IMG/VR virus record: IMGVR_UViG_2541047790_000011
From: a virus
Lineage: Duplodnaviria; Heunggongvirae; Uroviricota; Caudoviricetes
DNA length: 22,955 nt
Strand: one strand, 5' to 3'
Shown here: positions 10,901 through 22,955 of the stretch, piece after piece
How the letters are laid out: the number at the start of each line of letters is the position of its first letter
Position numbering within the stretch: the stretch's first letter is position 1
The notes under the pieces: generated by a model
Database searches by the model: none
The model's input: the letters and a program-made list of their open reading frames with translations, nothing else
What the model was told of the DNA's origin: nothing
Made by a program: the position numbers and the translations under genes

Positions 10901-11188
10901 ACAGGAGCAAAACAGGCTGATACGTGGGTTGATAAGGCAGCGTGACACATGGAAGACACAGGAGACAGGGCACAAAGCCAACAGGACAGGGCGCACAAAA
11001 CGCACCACAGCGAAGCGATTAACCGACCGTGACCGCGAGGTCATGGAATGTTTTCGCAATCGCTGGTGAGGCCGTCAGAGGGGGTGGGGGTGGTTTTCAG
11101 GACGAAACCGTCCCTGCCGGACACCGACCGCCTCCCCAAATTTTTATGCACGGGAATTTTTTGAAAAATAATCTGACGAAAAATAAGC

Positions 11189-13190: not shown

Positions 13191-13480
13191 CGAGAATGAG
13201 CGAAACCGAACTACTAAAAATAATCCGCCGTGTTACCGGAGCCAGCCAGACAGCAGACAAACAGGAGGCCACGCAGCCGGACAGCGTGATAGCCGAAAAT
13301 TACGCGCGTGTGGTGGCTGAGGTGATGCGCCGTGACGGTATTGAGCTTAACGGCGTGGATATGCGCAACATACGAACCAGAGTCCTTGAGTTGCTGGCAT
13401 ACCGTCGCCGTTCTCAACAACGGAGGGAGAGCGCGAAAAATACTTATCAGTGGAAGAAGCCGGAACGGTTGCGGCGGTAA
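13187..13480 (+). CDS. Hypothetical protein
   Basis: 97-aa ORF whose start overlaps the terL stop (ATGA); last gene before the island boundary region. Confidence 0.45.
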   Translation: MTRMSETELLKIIRRVTGASQTADKQEATQPDSVIAENYARVVAEVMRRDGIELNGVDMRNIRTRVLELLAYRRRSQQRRESAKNTYQWKKPERLRR

Positions 13481-13593
13481 CTTGCAGATATTCCCGATAA
13501 CGTAAAATTGCGTTGGCTGGCAGAGTGCAAATTTGCACGATGGCCTAACCCATTGATTGTTTCGGAAACCTCAATTTGAGGAGGCCGGACAGC

Positions 13594-13628
13594 GTGACGG
13601 AGGGTGACAACCAGTGACACGCCGTGAC
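13594..13628 (+). repeat. Four GTGAC direct repeats at exact 10-bp spacing (candidate integrase arm-type or packaging-protein sites)
   Basis: GTGAC at 13594, 13604, 13614 and 13624, phased by one helical turn, in the non-coding stretch between the last satellite gene and clpS. Confidence 0.4.
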
Positions 13629-14406
13629 AAAAAGACGGTTTAACCATCCATTAAAAATCGACGTGATTTTGTGCTTTCCGTATGAGGTGGCCAGCGTCAT
13701 TTTTTAGTGAGAAATTCTGGTCAGGGGCGTTGGCTGAATGGTTATTTTATCGTGCCCATGCACAGGGAGGGGGCGGGTAAAATCTCTGGAGGTGATGCCT
13801 GTCAGGACCGCCGCCTGACCCTTCCTCACATCGCCGCAGGTTCGAAAACTTTTTTTGTGTCAGGTGCGCACGGAATTGATAGATAAAACCTATATTAAAA
13901 AATCACGGAAGCCGTGCCATTGCTGGAGCAGTCAAAAATTCCACATCTCACGGCAGGCAAAAAAAGCGAATTTTGGGCCAGTTGAGGATAAAAAAGGGCT
14001 CACTAGTTTTGCACATCCTGGTATCGGGGTCGTCAGCCTCCCGCCAGTAACTAGGTAACTAATCACGCTGGTGGGCATGATGCCGATGCCGGGATCTCGG
14101 TATCGGTTTATCTGTGATCATCCACCAGCTTGATGACAGATAACAGGGAGTCATAACGGTTAAAGCGTGTTGATCTTTGTTCGTGGTTGTTCGATATTGT
14201 TCGTAAAGCGGTGTAGTTAATGGTGTAGTTAATTTCGCTGTTTTTGACGAGCTTATCATTTGCAACGCAATGAAAAACAAAGACTAATTAACAAAATGCT
14301 ATAAATGATAGTTATCTATCATGTGGAGTAGATTGGTCAGGCAAATAAGCTCTTGTCAGCGGCAGGGCGTTCTGCCGATAACCGTAACCGAAGATGATAA
14401 CTGACA

Positions 14407-17246: not shown

Positions 17247-17334
17247 GTTCACTGCCGTACAGGCAGCTTAGAAATTGCCGCGGATCCTGTCTGCCAATAA
17301 TGACAAGTTCACTGCCGTACAGGCAGATAAAATG
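17247..17334 (+). CRISPR. Orphan type I-F CRISPR remnant (two repeats, one spacer)
   Basis: 28-nt repeat GTTCACTGCCGTACAGGCAGCTTAGAAA at 17247-17274, 32-nt spacer ttgccgcggatcctgtctgccaataatgacaa at 17275-17306, and a second repeat at 17307-17334 identical over the first 20 nt but degenerate in the last 8 (ATAAAATG). Repeat matches the type I-F consensus from memory. No cas genes in the window. Confidence 0.7.
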
Positions 17335-17377: not shown

Positions 17378-17465
17378 TGGCGGTGAGGGGGGGATTCGAA
17401 CCCCCGATACGTTGCCGTATACACACTTTCCAGGCGTGCTCCTTCAGCCACTCGGACACCTCACC
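17378..17465 (-). tRNA. serW: tRNA-Ser (anticodon GGA)
   Basis: Reverse complement reads GGTGAGGTGTCCGAGTGGCTGAAGGAGCACGCCTGGAAAGTGTGTATACGGCAACGTATCGGGGGTTCGAATCCCCCCCTCACCGCCA: 88 nt with long variable arm, GGTTCGAATCC T-loop, anticodon GGA and encoded CCA. Confidence 0.93.
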
Positions 17466-17830
17466 AAATTGTTTTTTTGCCTGACCTCATGGGGGGCAAC
17501 GGGGCGCTACTATAGGGAGTTGGAATAAAACGGTCAAGAAGAATTTTTATGATAATTATTGTTTGCTCATACTGTAAACAAGTTGTGCAGTATATCTACA
17601 TCTGATGCGCCGCGCGATAAATAAGCCGCAATCCGTGAGATAAATGGACACAGTGCGGCTTTTCAGATACGGAAAAGGAATTACAGATTATCAGTCGTAA
17701 GCAACCCACGCTTACTGGCAAGGATGGTTTACAATGCTGAAAGCGCCTCCCGGCAATACCGCCAATCATCACTCAAACAGAAAAAATTATTGCTCATGGT
17801 TCACTCCGGTAATGAATCGTTTTACAGGCG

Positions 17831-18424
17831 TCATTCGGTCATGGAAAGATTGCTGATTTCGGTAATCCCGGCAATTTCCTCGCTGACGGATTTCAGTTCG
17901 ATTTCCAGCTTGGTGCGTTCGTTGACCAGCGCAGCTACGGTCTTACGGCGGTCTGCCAGTGACGGAAGGTTGTCATTGCCCCACGCCACGCTTTTATCCT
18001 TTTTGAGCGCTTCGGTCAGGCGGGTGGCGACCACATCCGGGAAGAAAAAGCATAACTTACGCATAACCGTCATCCCGACATCAGCCAGGGGGACATTCCC
18101 GCTCAGTCCCACCAGACGGAACAGACCAGAAATATCACCATTCTCATTTTCCAGATTACCCCAGCGTTCGGCGTTCCCTTCACTGCCGGAACCGTTGCAA
18201 AGAGCAAGCTTGAATGACTGATATTCTTCCTGCCCGAATCGCTCAATATATTCAGGAATAAAGGAACAGTAATCATTAAGCGATAATGGCATATCCTGTA
18301 ATGTGGTTATTTCACTGTTAATCTCTCCAATTCGGCGGGAGAGCTTTTCTTTCTGCTCATTCAGGGAGGCAAGATTATTTTTAACGGCGTTCAGTGCTTC
18401 GATAAGGGAAATAACAGGTTTCAT
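17831..18424 (-). CDS. Hypothetical protein (third gene of Mor-headed operon)
   Basis: 197 aa from MKPVISLIEALNAVKNNL; the start lies 1 nt after the upstream gene's stop. Coiled-coil-like N- and C-terminal segments; no recognised family. Confidence 0.5.
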   Translation of the reverse strand: MKPVISLIEALNAVKNNLASLNEQKEKLSRRIGEINSEITTLQDMPLSLNDYCSFIPEYIERFGQEEYQSFKLALCNGSGSEGNAERWGNLENENGDISGLFRLVGLSGNVPLADVGMTVMRKLCFFFPDVVATRLTEALKKDKSVAWGNDNLPSLADRRKTVAALVNERTKLEIELKSVSEEIAGITEISNLSMTE

Positions 18425-18425
18425 T

Positions 18426-19040
18426 TTAATAACTCCAGATGAAAGGCGTGGTGAGGGCGAGCGCTTCAGAATAGGAGACATTGCAGGCTGCACTTACGTC
18501 CTTTATTAAAAGGTGCTGTGCTGCCCTCTGACTGTCTGCTATGCCGTCAAACTCTGAAAAATGAACGTGTGATTCATTGTGATAAAAGCAAACCGGGTAA
18601 CAGCTTTCCATAAATTCTACCTGCGCCAGTCCCTTTACTGCTGGAGGCTGTGAGCCGAGAAAACCGATATGCTGAAGATACCAGGCACCGATTCCTGCCG
18701 GGTTGTTCGCTTCGCCGGGTCTATAAAATGCCGCAGACACTTTCCTGTAACGCCCTGCGCGTACCAGTCCCAGCAGGGTTTCATCAGGCTTAACCAGCGC
18801 GAAAAGCCTGCCGTTTTTACTTATCAGCCCAGTTGTTTCACCATAAGATGGGCTGTTGCTGGCCGGATGTCCAATACACAGCGGCGCACCATAACCCGCA
18901 CGATGATAGCCGTTATAGGCTGCCGCCATGTTGTCGATATCCTCGTCGGAAAAGGCAATTTCCTGCCCAGCCATCGTGATATGCGTTCCCGCCCGGAATA
19001 TCTCGATAGTTTTCCAGTTGCCAATATCGATATCTTTCAT
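18426..19040 (-). CDS. Hypothetical protein (second gene of Mor-headed operon)
   Basis: 204-aa ORF tightly coupled to both neighbours. The N-terminus (W-TIEIFRAGTHI--AGQEI-FS-EDIDN-AAAYN ... PLCIGHP) loosely recalls Mu-like prophage protein I / DUF-type phage proteins; this is a weak, unverified impression. Confidence 0.5.
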   Translation of the reverse strand: MKDIDIGNWKTIEIFRAGTHITMAGQEIAFSDEDIDNMAAAYNGYHRAGYGAPLCIGHPASNSPSYGETTGLISKNGRLFALVKPDETLLGLVRAGRYRKVSAAFYRPGEANNPAGIGAWYLQHIGFLGSQPPAVKGLAQVEFMESCYPVCFYHNESHVHFSEFDGIADSQRAAQHLLIKDVSAACNVSYSEALALTTPFIWSY

Positions 19041-19041
19041 T

Positions 19042-19569
19042 TTAAATTACCCCATATTTCGCATCGCGCTGTATTTTATTTTTCTTGCGTTCGGCGGCTA
19101 TAATCTGATAAATACACTGAATGGAACGCTTGTATTTTTTTGATAGTTCAAAAATAGAGATACCCTGATAAAAATCAGCCAGTATTTTTGAGTTCCTGTC
19201 GAAAGTGTTTTTTGATGCGCCCATAGGGATATATATATTCCCCCTGAAAAATGTATTCCTGAGACATTCAGTGATGGCAGGAGAAAGTTTTTCGGCTTGC
19301 GAACAGAGGTAAGGTATGGTTCCTAATGTCTGCTCAATAGATTCAGTCAGCTCCTGTAGGAAGCGAACTGCCTTAGGTGCTCTTTCTCGGTGTTCAGCCA
19401 TATACCCCTGGCAGCCACCAAGGTTATCAGAGATACCCAACACAATATGATTAGCCGCACTGCAGGACTGTTGCCGTGAATACCCTTTGTTGATCAGAAA
19501 CACTTCTATAGCATCGCCCATTGCCCCCAAAGTATCGGATGAAGCATACAATCCTTCTCTTGTAATCAT
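19042..19569 (-). CDS. Mor-family transcriptional activator-like protein
   Basis: C-terminal region RGNIYIPMGASKNTFDRNSKILADFYQGISIFELSKKYKRSIQCIYQIIAAERKK parallels the Mu Mor/C activator HTH region (G-VYIP-G ... R---I---F-G-----L---Y------IY-I---RK). GAGGTG lies 5-6 nt upstream of the ATG at 19569; the ORF track GTG at 19575 is an alternative. Confidence 0.6.
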   Translation of the reverse strand: MITREGLYASSDTLGAMGDAIEVFLINKGYSRQQSCSAANHIVLGISDNLGGCQGYMAEHRERAPKAVRFLQELTESIEQTLGTIPYLCSQAEKLSPAITECLRNTFFRGNIYIPMGASKNTFDRNSKILADFYQGISIFELSKKYKRSIQCIYQIIAAERKKNKIQRDAKYGVI

Positions 19570-19809
19570 AATCACACCTCGTCAACGATAAATATGCGCA
19601 CATAAAGCCTTTATAAAGCTTTATGAGGTGCATTACTGGTGTCATTCCATGATGCACACCACCAACAACCAAAAACGCCTTACAGAGCATTTCAATGTGT
19701 GTTATTAATGTGGATTAAGAATATGGTTTTGGGGCGAGAATGTTTTTTAATGTACTTTAGATATGACGAAGCCCCTCAAAGGAGGGGCGAGGCGGAAAAC
19801 TATTTATAA

Positions 19810-20088
19810 CTATTCCTTACTCTCCTGATCAAGACGATTACCTATCAGGTTAATCATTGCCATTGCATCAGATAGCAGGATACTGTTAACAAGTGCTAAG
19901 GGCGTCTGTGTTGATTTATCATCAACGGCAACAGAAAGTTCATCATTCAGGCGACGAACGGCCTCAAGACGGCTAAAGGCGGCTTCCCATATTTCTGTAC
20001 TCGGGGCATCAGCATTAACAAACAAAACATCGTAAGACGTTCCCTGAGACTCATGAGGACAGGCTATGAAATTAGCAGTAGCTTTCAT
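19810..20088 (-). CDS. Hypothetical small acidic protein (second gene of 2-gene operon)
   Basis: 92-aa ORF; its start overlaps the upstream gene's stop (ATGA at 20085-20088). No recognised family. Confidence 0.5.
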   Translation of the reverse strand: MKATANFIACPHESQGTSYDVLFVNADAPSTEIWEAAFSRLEAVRRLNDELSVAVDDKSTQTPLALVNSILLSDAMAMINLIGNRLDQESKE

Positions 20089-20564
20089 TTTGCAGTCCTC
20101 CGGTTAATTATAAATTTATTATAAATTTCATAACTTGCGGCATTCAGTCCTGGACTGTATTTATCTGCCAGTGAACAGGCAATGAATTCTTCAATCGATT
20201 TAGTCAGTATATCAAGCTCAGTTGTTCCGGAATAACGCAAGGCCACTCGAAATAATTCTCGGCAGTATGTTTTTTTATGGTCAATATTTTGTAACTGCTG
20301 TTGCGGTATATCACGACGTTCAAATATATTAACAAATGCATTAAGCGGGAAGCTATGATTTGCCTGCGGATATTGCTCATAGGAAAACACCACAGTATTA
20401 CCGTTGCATTCTTTAACAATTGCATTCATACCGCTGTTAATTTCAATATACCACTCTCCTATACATGGAGGATTGATAGCTTCGCTCTGTGCCTTGATTA
20501 AAGGTAAGCGGATAGTATCCACTTGGTTTGTTGCAACTGAATCGTTAGACTTGTCGTTAGCCAT
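20085..20564 (-). CDS. Hypothetical protein (first gene of 2-gene operon)
   Basis: 159 aa from MANDKSNDSV with AGGA 8 nt upstream. AT-rich codon usage by eye. No recognised family. Confidence 0.55.
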   Translation of the reverse strand: MANDKSNDSVATNQVDTIRLPLIKAQSEAINPPCIGEWYIEINSGMNAIVKECNGNTVVFSYEQYPQANHSFPLNAFVNIFERRDIPQQQLQNIDHKKTYCRELFRVALRYSGTTELDILTKSIEEFIACSLADKYSPGLNAASYEIYNKFIINRRTAK

Positions 20565-20597
20565 GACTGTTATCCTACACATAACGGTTTTTGGTTA

Positions 20598-20701
20598 GGC
20601 CATAGCAAGTGCTCGCAACATTTGTTATGGCCGTTTCTTTGGCCCTTTCCCTGTGATAAGGTATAGACCTAACAAGTAAACACTAAGCCATAGGTCTATA
20701 C
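20598..20701. promoter_or_regulatory. Divergent promoter region with two inverted repeats (candidate operators)
   Basis: IR1: ggccatagcaa (20598-20608) / ttgttatggcc (20622-20632), one mismatch. IR2: gtatagacct (20661-20670) / aggtctatac (20692-20701), perfect, 21-bp spacer. Located between the minus-strand 2-gene operon and the plus-strand RHH gene. Confidence 0.35.
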
Positions 20702-20752
20702 ATGTCAACTATCTTGAGAGATAAAAGCCAAAAAGGGGCAGGGAAAGCCCCC

Positions 20753-20893
20753 ATGTTTAACGTTAGAATATCGCCAGATTTGAAAGAACAGTTTGAAATA
20801 CAAGCAAAAAAAGAAGGTGTTAGCTTGGGAAACTGGCTCAAGGAACTTGGCAGGGCGGAACTAAAACGTAAGGGGATCGAGCCGAAAGGGTGA
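20753..20893 (+). CDS. Ribbon-helix-helix (CopG/Arc/MetJ-like) DNA-binding protein
   Basis: 46 aa from MFNVRISPDLKEQFEIQAKKEGVSLGNWLKELGRAELKR: a beta-strand followed by two helices is the RHH signature. AGGGA lies about 9 nt upstream of this ATG. The ORF-track start at 20702 has no Shine-Dalgarno and abuts IR2. Confidence 0.55.
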   Translation: MFNVRISPDLKEQFEIQAKKEGVSLGNWLKELGRAELKRKGIEPKG

Positions 20894-20919
20894 TGTTTTA
20901 GTCTCCCTGTGTTTGATTA

Positions 20920-21753
20920 AAAGCGAAATCGCTTTCACATTTAAAGTTCAAGATAGCCAATGCCATCACCAAAGCGGACAGCGCTGTCCGCTTTTCATCA
21001 GTAAAAACCACATATTTACGCCAAAACGCTCAACGTTGAGCGCTACGTACCCCGGCAAAAGCGCAAGCGTCTGCGCTTTTGGTAACAAGCAATCAGCATT
21101 TAAATGCGGACAACGTTGACCGTTTTGAGGAATCAATGTCGGCTGAGCAAAAACGACAACGTTGTCGTTTTTAAAACGGCAAGCGCTTACCGTTTCAGAT
21201 TATCGAGGCGGTAAGAGTTTACCGTTTGGTGTCAATTATGTTCAATAAGCGAAAACGTTTTCGCATTTTCTCACCTAACGCGGCAAACCTTCTTTGTCCT
21301 AGATGGAAAAACGACAGCGCTGTCGTTTCTAATCCGGGGTTCCAAACCGCTCAGCGCTGAGCGGTTCTGTGGCTTTCTTACAATCCAAATCCGCCAACGT
21401 TGGCAGATTTGCAAATATCACATATGATTGATGGTCCCGAATCACAAATGTCCCAGCGCGGGGATATTTCAAGTAGTTCAATCATTTCATGCGCTGGCAG
21501 TCATCTCCAAAACTGCGAACGCCTGCCCTTTCAGTACAGTTTGGTAATATATATTGGTAAGCTTTACTTGTAGAAATATAAAACTCCAAAAGCGCCAGCG
21601 CTGGCGCTTTGTAAGGCCAGCAATATCATTCCCAGCGCTGGAATACTAAAAGGCGGATTCCTGCATCTTAATTTGAGATGGAATCTCATGGCAATCCAGT
21701 GTTAACGTAGGGTTTTAGCCAGTACTCACGACTTGAATATGCCAGCGCTGGCA
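20920..21753. repeat. Array of at least 15 sequence-diverse palindromes with shared architecture (A-run, CG-rich arms around a CAGCGCTG or CAACGTTG centre, T-run)
   Basis: Perfect palindromes read directly: 20971-20994 (24 nt), 21027-21042 (16), 21149-21172 (24), 21249-21264 (16), 21309-21328 (20), 21345-21366 (22), 21393-21404 (12), 21589-21610 (22), 21632-21641 (10), 21740-21753 (14). Near-perfect: 20920-20935, 21057-21080, 21107-21122, 21174-21195, 21209-21224. No convincing ORF covers the array. Confidence 0.6.
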
Positions 21754-21990
21754 CATTTGAAGTCTGGTAACATCAATAATCTAATGACACCTGATGTAAT
21801 TTTGAACCCTGAACTGGAATCAACCCCAAATTTAATGGCAACAGCTATCAGCCAGATTACTGATGAACGTGACCTGCTGAACCAATTACTTGACCAAGCA
21901 CAGATGGCCGATGCATTCGAGCAATTTTCCCGAACGGTTCGGACTTCTAAACTGGCTTTTGTGAAGGAAAACAAGGGCTTTGTTGAATAA
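21739..21990 (+). CDS. Hypothetical ORF whose 3' end runs into the IS903 terminal inverted repeat (possibly insertion-truncated)
   Basis: About 83 aa from ATG 21739 (MPALAHLKSG...); the last codons (GGC TTT GTT GAA TAA) are IS903 end sequence. The start codon sits inside the 14-bp palindrome 21740-21753. Coding status uncertain. Confidence 0.3.
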   Translation: MPALAHLKSGNINNLMTPDVILNPELESTPNLMATAISQITDERDLLNQLLDQAQMADAFEQFSRTVRTSKLAFVKENKGFVE

Positions 21991-22955
21991 ATCAGATTTC
22001 GGGTAAGTCTCCCCCGTAGCGGGTTGTGTTTTCAGGCAATACGCACGCTTTCAGGCATACCTGCTTTCGTCATTTTGTTCAGCGCTCGTACCAGGGCCAT
22101 AGCCTCTGCAACCTGACCATCGTAGTCACGCAGTGTCAGTGAACCTCCGAACAGCTGTTTTACCCGGTACATCGCCGTTTCCGCTATCGAGCGACGGTTA
22201 TAATCTGTTGTCCATTTCCACCGCGCATTACTCCCGGTCAGCCGCTGATTCGCAACAGCACGGTTACGGTCTGCATATTCACCGGGCCAGTAACCCGCGC
22301 CTTTTCGGGGCGGGATAAGCGCGCTGATTTTCTTACGCCGCAGTTCATCGTGACAGAGCCGGGTGTCGTAAGCGCCGTCTGCCGATGCTGCCCTGATTTT
22401 TCTGTGAGTCTGCCGGATAAGACCCGGGAAGGCTTCTGAGTCCGTCACATTGTTCAGCGACAGGTCTGCACAGATGATTTCATGTGTTTTGCTGTCAACT
22501 GCCAGATGCAACTTTCGCCATATACGACGGCGTTCTTTGCCGTGTTTTTTGACTTTCCATTCGCCTTCACCAAAGACCTTCAGCCCGGTGGAATCAATCA
22601 CCAGATGCGCGATTTCACCTCGGGTGAACGTTTTGAAACTGACATTAACCGACTTTGCGCGCTTGCTGACACTGGTGTAATCCGGGCAGCGCAACGGAAC
22701 ATTCATCAGTGTAAAAATGGAATCAATAAAACCCTGTGCAGCCCGCAGGGTCAACCTGAACACGCGTTTAATGACCAGAACGGTGGTGATGGCGAGATCA
22801 GAATAGCGCTGAGGTCTTCCCCGTGATGAAGGCGTTGCCGACTCATACCAGGCCTGAATAGCTTCATCATCCAGCCAGAAAGTTATGGAGCCACGGTTGA
22901 TGAGGGCTTTATTGTAGGTGGGCCAGTTGGTGATTTTGAACTTTTGCTTTGCCAC
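21976..22955 (-). mobile_element. IS903 (IS5 family), partial - runs off the right window edge
   Basis: Terminal inverted repeat GGCTTTGTTGAATAAATC begins at about 21976; the internal transposase is recognisable as IS903 from memory. The ~1.06-kb element would end beyond base 22955. Confidence 0.88.
22032..22955 (-). CDS. IS903 transposase
   Basis: 307-codon ORF starting MAKQKFKITNWPTYNKALINRGSITFWLDDEAIQAWYESATPSSRGRPQRYSDLAITTVLVIKRVFRLTLRAAQGF, near-identical to the IS903 transposase as recalled. Start codon (GTG in this frame) is at the very last bases of the window. Confidence 0.9.
   Translation of the reverse strand: MAKQKFKITNWPTYNKALINRGSITFWLDDEAIQAWYESATPSSRGRPQRYSDLAITTVLVIKRVFRLTLRAAQGFIDSIFTLMNVPLRCPDYTSVSKRAKSVNVSFKTFTRGEIAHLVIDSTGLKVFGEGEWKVKKHGKERRRIWRKLHLAVDSKTHEIICADLSLNNVTDSEAFPGLIRQTHRKIRAASADGAYDTRLCHDELRRKKISALIPPRKGAGYWPGEYADRNRAVANQRLTGSNARWKWTTDYNRRSIAETAMYRVKQLFGGSLTLRDYDGQVAEAMALVRALNKMTKAGMPESVRIA

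Follow-up and report, generated by a model that had tools for sequence, protein, structure and literature searches.

The 926 bp that separate the last late gene from clpS (positions 13481-14406) in a 22,955-nucleotide viral stretch, IMG/VR record IMGVR_UViG_2541047790_000011 (hereafter the window), are the gene-free right end of a 14.5-kb capsid-forming phage-inducible chromosomal island (cf-PICI), followed by 85 bp of native clpS leader DNA. The island part of the gap appears to be assembled from modules, namely hairpin units, a block of phased GTGAC repeats, a second cos of phage type and attachment-arm repeats (Table 1). The window is 100% identical to Escherichia coli SaT040, and the identical RefSeq genome carries no annotated gene in the 926 bp, which also gave no Rfam match, even at E<=1. 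A P4-type tyrosine integrase (Int) has placed the island within the cspD-clpS spacer, in a core of 17 bp where yljB has its 3' end, and the island part of the gap would be a mosaic that is exchanged among PICIs by recombination. The idea that the gap is an emptied cargo hotspot was rejected, as most related islands have a similar non-coding right end of 0.55-0.95 kb.

The right junction is demonstrated by comparison with empty sites. Island-free genomes, K-12 among them, align to the gap region only from position 14301 rightward, and reading the K-12 empty site together with both SaT040 junctions located a 17-bp direct repeat, ATGATAGTTATYTATCA. An earlier note, made from the letters of this DNA without database searches, had proposed such an alignment to an island-free E. 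coli, and it placed both the junction and the shared repeat. K-12 holds a single copy of the core, and the attL copy, with one mismatch, lies 168 bp upstream of the int ATG. An inverted repeat, GATAG-TTAT-CTATC, lies within the core, which in attB and attL overlaps the stop codon of yljB; this gene is undamaged at attL. Between the core copies the island measures 14,488 bp. The satellite thus occupies the cspD-clpS interval, as the note had suggested might be so. The gene cspD is neither lost nor altered: cspD and yljB are annotated intact to the left of int, beyond the window, with cspD about 400 bp left of the window start and left of attL. The window does lack cspD, solely because it starts at the int ATG.

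The island is a cf-PICI because of its gene set, which comprises int, an AlpA-type excisionase/regulator, DUF4222, a D5-type primase-helicase, SSB, capsid, protease, portal, connector, HNH, the small terminase TerS and the large terminase TerL (annotation, Pfam), with no tail or lysis genes among the annotated genes (RefSeq annotation, Pfam). A size of about 15 kb, the replication origin and the specific attachment site fit as well. Known cf-PICIs such as EcCIEDL933 have the same order, int-alpA-pri ... capsid-protease-portal-connector-HNH-terS-terL, likewise have no tail genes and are also about 15 kb long (bioRxiv 10.1101/2022.09.08.507074). Compared with these, the present island adds a phage-type cos and the GTGAC block. 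In two preprints on cf-PICIs, cos is unmapped and the non-coding right end is undescribed.

One module of the right end is the GTGAC block. As the earlier note reported, four GTGAC copies stand at exact 10-bp spacing on the plus strand, at 13594, 13604, 13614 and 13624. A four-copy phased array, with two mismatches allowed, arose in 0 of 100 dinucleotide-preserving shuffles, and the pentamer is no commoner in the window than expected (33 found, 36 expected). Since K-12 matches from 14301 onward only, the array is island DNA. Around it extends a conserved block of about 50 bp (13591-13640) with the consensus CGTGACGGAGrGTGACAACCAGTGACACrCCGTGACAAAAAGACGG. Scans of genome and viral collections for bare GTGAC-N5 x4 returned mostly period-10 noise from GC-rich genomes, and loci were filtered by BLAST. 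In a collection of 5426 complete E. coli genomes, to which all E. coli counts given here refer, the block is present in 227 genomes at 254 places, always chromosomal and nearly always unannotated, and it was found in no record of the phage and plasmid collections. The block is a PICI-specific module. Spacers included, it is near invariant in classical PICIs, which form no capsids, and in capsid-forming ones, among them classical islands beside yejO. Relatives carry four or five array copies, the number changing by exact 10-bp units, and across about a dozen distinct versions the four core pentamers are unsubstituted and five spacer positions vary. The restriction of substitutions to spacers, together with the exact 10-bp changes in copy number, weakly favours a phased protein-binding array.

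Comparison of 60-odd related loci (numbered with an L here, as are all compared loci) indicates which genes accompany the block. The array co-occurs with integrases 37-100% identical, with AlpA proteins 32-100% identical and with both D5-type and RepA-type replication proteins. No array copy, even a degenerate one, is present in L303 (Int 97%, same core, same 12-mer pair), in L275, L293 and again L303 (AlpA 99% identical) or in L270, L306, L308 and L319 (primase 98-99% identical). The only constant neighbour, in all block-bearing islands, is the phrog_1561 gene at its left. The protein encoded there has no Pfam or NCBIfam match, its best PDB sequence match is not significant (E 0.4) and its homologs are all unnamed; its AlphaFold model is helical with a basic C-terminal helix (predicted local distance difference test, pLDDT, 72.8). 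To the right, the flank of the block is 85-90% identical in L005, L008, L057, L154, L171, L204 and L250, and L319 carries this flank without the array. A weak hairpin with a T-run at 13683-13705 corresponds in relatives to a proper terminator-like TGACGTGGCCAACGTCATTTTTT. RNA folding of 13476-13720 gave no significant stability (z = -1.55) and left the array without a predicted structure, and a promoter/terminator scan returned nothing above chance that would account for the array. A 51-aa minus-strand open reading frame (ORF) over the array (13545-13700) was considered and dropped, as it has no family match and coding cannot give a 10-bp period.

Another module of the right end is a probable cos of phage type. 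The sequence at 13756-13893 is about 80% identical to the DNA that separates HNH from terS in phi467, in mEp235 and in numerous E. coli prophages, and this is the sole such module match in the window (nhmmer E=3.5e-39). From ACCGCCGCC through the T-tract, 50/50 nt are identical to prophage L007, with flanks diverged to about 80%. The HK97 cos has the same architecture, with a G-run, about 30 nt, GACCGCCGCC at the cut and a T-tract downstream (PMC11331095). For the end sequence HK97 was used, because the mEp235 record start, first considered as a physical end, is the terS ATG and not a mapped end; the HK97 record starts and ends at the physical ends, and its right end reads ...GACCGCCGCCAAA. 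By homology with these ends, a top-strand cut is predicted after 13818. The T-tract then lies at +32 to +38, as in phi467-type prophages, versus +24 to +30 in HK97. The HK97 TerS occupies +15 to +29 on the downstream side of the cut, where the A/T-tract lies (PMC11331095). In phages the homologous DNA is placed between the HNH gene and terS, and here it stands at the island right end, 2.7 kb from terS; it is closest to phi467/P27-type prophages, not HK97, and its ends are predicted from sequence. The island's own TerS, TerL and HNH proteins are 29%, 32% and 41% identical to those of phi467. Modules of this type occur in 1064 of the 5426 genomes, and 37 genomes hold copies at least 99% identical to it. 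Classical PICIs also carry the cos module, often directly after the GTGAC array. From these homologies we conclude that the right-end module is a putative second cos with the specificity of an HNH-dependent, phi467/P27/HK97-like phage. A helper terminase of that type could cut and package the island, beside packaging from the island's own cos.

That own cos most likely lies in the canonical HNH-terS gap. G-runs come first there, and after about 33 nt they are followed by GACCGCCTCC (11127-11136), then by a T-tract and finally by terS; these motifs are conserved in 40/40 cf-PICI loci examined, including loci without the right-end module. At the replication origin, an AT-rich stretch is surrounded by more than ten GGTAGAGG/CCTCTACC iterons of either orientation, a layout matching the organisation of Gram-negative PICI origins (PMC6092414). 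As a separate observation, the D5-type primase-helicase (window 3300-3690) and the RepA-type (AAA_25) helicase of the classical PICI L005 (39-460) have only the N-terminal 120-140 or so residues in common, at 41% identity, which suggests a common module fused to different motors.

The attachment arms carry two further repeats. A doubled 12-mer, GGTGTAGTTAAT x2, stands in the attR arm, and its co-oriented counterpart, GGTGTAGTCAATGGTGTAGTTAAT, is found beyond the window, immediately before int (L002 3474-3497). In the reconstructed attP, the edges of the 12-mers are 80 bp upstream (core centre 14313) and 129 bp downstream (core centre L002 3345) of the core centre. The doubled motif in the attP of helper-embedded PICIs (HE-PICIs), the only islands for which that study reported it, lies 81+/-2 bp upstream and 132+/-2 bp downstream of the attP centre (PMC10111431). 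Thus GGTGTAGTYAAT x2 resembles the published motif in having co-oriented copies at the published distances, and it also varies together with Int type: each of the five loci whose Int is at least 76% identical ends on the right with the same 12-mer pair (L303, L330, L168/L266, L272), an Int of 65% goes with TGTGTGGTCAGT x2, and one of 38% with TGTGTATTGCAA x2, the published doubled motif. Only loci with their right end inside the fetched DNA entered this comparison, loci that end short of the island end being uninformative. The doubled 12-mer is probably a set of Int arm-type sites, and because the motif changes with the integrase, this reading is supported. Like the HE-PICI attP, the present one has a tandem motif of about 11-12 bp in two co-oriented copies, with int adjoining the downstream copy and then alpA (PMC10111431). 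It differs in the motif itself (GGTGTAGTYAAT here, TGTATTGC there), in its attB, which is the yljB 3' end and not a prophage late gene, and in the presence of a second phased repeat, TTGTTCG.

This second repeat occurs three times at exact 10-bp spacing in the attR arm, and the same unit, again with period 10, is found in the attL arm, between core and int. Another TTGTTCG period-10 repeat, at 6945-6971, lies about 200 bp upstream of the capsid gene, where it may serve AlpA as an operator of the late operon. AlpA is an activator of PICI genes (PMC6092414). TTGTTCG x3 is tentatively assigned to AlpA, because the repeat also stands upstream of the capsid operon and persists in L325, where AlpA is 90% and Int 65% identical. 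The earlier note had expected phased direct repeats that, once the island is excised as a circle, run on into the DNA upstream of int, an expectation that fits the attP region and not the GTGAC array.

Table 1 Features of the island right end, and related features elsewhere in the window (positions in the window)
Feature	Position	Strand	Remarks
Replication origin	5050-5300		just downstream of pri
Probable own cos of the island	11070-11188	+	canonical HNH-terS gap; HK97-like architecture
phrog_1561 gene	13196-13480	+	94 aa; last of the late (packaging) operon; PHROGs E=2.5e-50
Hairpin units, two to three	13484-13590		flanks TTGAT...GCTGG/GCCGG conserved
Hairpin AACGTAAAATTGCGTT	13499-13514		first of three in the window
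Hairpin GTGCAAATTTGCAC	13525-13538		14-bp palindrome
Hairpin CCTCAATTTGAGG	13569-13581		third of three in the window
GTGAC x4, 10-bp phasing	13594-13628	+	core of the conserved block
Right flank of the block	13629-13745	+	common to classical PICIs
Putative HK97/P27-type cos module	13756-13893	+	homology to phage HNH-terS gaps
G-run	13765-13777	+	within the right-end cos module
Inverted repeat GTCAGG/CCTGAC	13801-13819	+	surrounds GACCGCCGCC (13806-13815)
T-tract	13850-13856	+	within the right-end cos module
Spacer with strong hairpin (14082-14107)	13894-14115		14063-14163 partly common to other PICIs
TTGTTCG x3, exact 10-bp spacing	14177-14204	+	attR arm; candidate AlpA sites
Doubled 12-mer GGTGTAGTTAAT x2	14210-14233	+	candidate integrase arm-type site
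attR core ATGATAGTTATCTATCA	14305-14321	+	17 bp; same as K-12 attB; one mismatch to attL
Native clpS upstream DNA	14322-14406	+	85 bp; matched in 5425/5426 E. coli genomes

Several explanations may be considered for the GTGAC block. We tentatively favour a site for several copies of one small DNA-binding protein, which would line up next to one another along a single face of the helix. The binder would be neither Int nor AlpA nor the replication initiator, the best candidates being the phrog_1561 product or a helper-phage protein, and the block would act at the end of the late/packaging region. Phased direct repeats serve as operators of small phage regulators and excisionases in the Cox boxes of P2 and the Xis sites of lambda. 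In these, too, short direct repeats recur once per helical turn, an arrangement that suits cooperative binding to a single side of the DNA, whereas the GTGAC array is unrelated to them in sequence and lies far from the core and from any recognisable promoter. The earlier note had instead taken the four repeats for integrase arm-type sites of the attP region, in keeping with their helical phasing on the island side of the junction and with the arm-binding domain of the integrase (Arm-DNA-bind_3). This is almost certainly wrong: the array is 677-727 bp from the core, whereas arm-type sites typically lie within about 50-250 bp; the repeat is not found between the attL core and int; and the array does not track Int, since the block is identical in yejO-site islands and with integrases 37-77% identical (L276, L266, L272, L330) and is missing from L303 despite its nearly identical Int, core and 12-mer pair. 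The doubled 12-mer, at the published distances, is the better arm candidate. The note had looked for its disproof in an array shared with island-free strains, where none is present; the rejection rests on this other evidence.

A replication element bound by the primase-helicase, whether an origin or a second cis region like crr of P4, is very unlikely as well. P4 does have a second cis-acting replication region, and the array consists of phased short iterons beside a moderately A/T-rich stretch, with the D5-type and RepA-type initiators of array-bearing islands having their N-terminal domain in common. A locus from Scandinavium (L036) has GTGACC iterons around an AT-rich region, but it was set aside as an unrelated replicon. 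Against such a role, the textbook PICI origin with its different iterons (GGTAGAGG) lies directly downstream of pri, 8.5 kb from the array, islands with nearly identical primases carry no array, and the array is invariant across initiators whose shared domain is just 41-71% identical. An accessory packaging site, cosB- or cosQ-like, of the adjacent phage-type cos is also improbable, although six classical PICI versions show an ORF stop, GTGAC x4-5, 77-88 bp and then the cos core, the array and cos modules of the window are 180 bp apart, and the array is always at the end of the packaging operon. The array occurs without a phage-type cos in the seven loci that have its right flank (L005, L008, L057, L154, L171, L204, L250), L255 and all phages have such a cos without the array, and HK97 TerS binds downstream of the cut, not upstream (PMC11331095). 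Roles as an Int arm site, an AlpA-specific site, an origin or a TerS site of the HK97 kind can be excluded with reasonable confidence. That the block has no function, being a slipped-strand repeat that hitch-hikes in recombination-prone non-coding DNA, is unlikely, though by no means negligible. The region is indeed a patchwork of reshuffled units, but neutral drift would sit poorly with core pentamers free of substitutions beside five varying spacer positions, with phasing kept through copy-number changes and with the spread of the block over 254 places, several island types and several integration sites.

The right-end cos may likewise be read in two ways. It could be an inactive relic of recombination with classical PICIs, the island being packaged from its own cos only, a possibility of some weight that we nevertheless consider unlikely. 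cf-PICIs with TerS 99-100% identical have no right-end cos, and another cf-PICI group seems to have lost exactly the cos core. However, identity of 50/50 nt from cut to T-tract amid flanks of about 80% is the pattern expected under selection, nearly identical copies are retained in 37 genomes, and EcCICFT073 is a documented case of an island with two functional cos sites (PMC6092414). That island resembles the present one in that a single PICI has two cos sites, the second unexplained, yet both of its sites are lambda-type and used by the helper terminase with Rpp (PMC6092414), whereas here one site appears to be that of the island terminase and the other that of a phage-type HNH/TerS/TerL system. 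It could be speculated that two cos specificities allow packaging either by the island's own terminase, into its own small capsids, or by a helper HNH-dependent terminase, with GTGAC as a new PICI-specific binding array that, where the packaging region ends, works together with phrog_1561 or a protein of the helper; as a combined proposal this is tentative, and its chances are rather low.

A number of points weigh against active roles for these modules. For the block, the phrog_1561 model has no recognisable DNA-binding fold or significant fold neighbour, and an association test over all ORF clusters found no island ORF that tracks the array and no block binder: its signals were weak (best uncorrected p 0.002-0.006), the top ones being the RepA-type helicase and a YlcI/YnfO-like small protein, of which the window's version is only 36% identical to the array-associated variant. 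The spacers are almost as conserved as GTGAC itself, which suggests recent spread, and part of the conservation may be due to recent horizontal spread and not to selection; many PICIs are without the block. For the second cos, the cut positions come from homology alone, SaT040 has no cognate prophage, the module type occurring once in its genome, and related cf-PICIs with near-identical terminases lack it; therefore it is dispensable and could be a relic. For the arms, the assignments of TTGTTCG to AlpA and of the 12-mer to Int rest on co-variation in few islands.

Two observations on related islands touch the cos module. In L256, L259, L261, L193 and L280, about 60-100 nt past the last ORF, GTGAC x5 is followed by ...TAATACCCCCC joined directly to GTTTTTTTT..., which looks like a precise deletion, from C-run to T-tract, of the phage-type cos core present in L168/L266. 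The classical PICIs L266/L168, L254, L272, L312, L314, L255, L301, L302 and L309 carry an HK97/P27-type cos together with a Nu1-like small-terminase or Rpp-like gene and no TerL, which implies that these islands may exploit HNH-dependent cos phages.

Between the last late gene and the GTGAC block, the DNA is a patchwork of units of about 40 bp, each with a small A/T-centred hairpin. The perfect 14-bp palindrome GTGCAAATTTGCAC, which the earlier note had correctly identified, would on its own be within chance for 23 kb (shuffle mean 1.5). In comparison with other PICIs, the stem sequence differs among units and stays perfectly complementary, with constant flanks, and at least nine stem versions were found, including GCGCAAAATTGCGC, GGCTCAAAATTGAGCC, CTCCTCAATTTTGAGGAG, TCCCCCATTGGGGGA and ATGTAAATTTACAT. 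By this pattern the palindrome is a member of a conserved hairpin family with compensatory stems, and such stems favour a hairpin in RNA or single-stranded DNA and disfavour a sequence-specific dimer site. RNAalifold gave no consensus structure for the hairpin units, since their loops vary in length and the alignment does not keep the pairing in register, and the stems were judged directly, not by a consensus fold. The units often open by repeating the 3'-terminal sequence of the last ORF (GGTAACTnnnTGATATT), which suggests scars of duplication and recombination. Most likely, the hairpin units would form RNA 3' ends or structures of terminator type and would also be places where recombination joins DNA. 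A separate 12,152-bp record from strain Z1323CEC0013, NZ_CP148430.1, has a 91% match to window 13505-13589 and could represent a PICI, excised or circular, that was assembled as a separate replicon.

Other features lie to the right of clpS in the window. Between clpA and tRNA-Ser, positions 17247-17327 hold a minimal orphan type I-F array of clustered regularly interspaced short palindromic repeats (CRISPR), with one full repeat (GTTCACTGCCGTACAGGCAGCTTAGAAA; Rfam CRISPR-DR4, 50 bits), a 32-nt spacer and a truncated repeat. A second integrated element occupies 17378-22955 beside tRNA-Ser(GGA), between serW and infA in this strain, and encodes a Mor-family activator, HicB, hypothetical proteins and an IS5 transposase. 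Within it, an unannotated stretch of about 850 bp between the HicB antitoxin gene and a hypothetical gene (20940-21780) contains some 14 perfect palindromes, whose centres (AGCGCT or AACGTT) are conserved and whose stems vary, and many of them have A-runs and T-runs at their sides; eight are at least 14 bp long, where 1.5 would be expected in the entire window.

The exact integration site and the attachment anatomy are now set for a cf-PICI family that is frequent in clinical E. coli, the 100% matches including O25b:H4-ST131 records. The doubled-motif attP architecture extends beyond helper-embedded PICIs, with a motif that changes with the integrase. The GTGAC block, a module in about 4% of E. 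coli genomes, offers a cheap and well-defined target for binding or deletion experiments. If the second cos is active, it would bear on why some PICIs have two cos sites and would widen the routes by which cf-PICIs spread.

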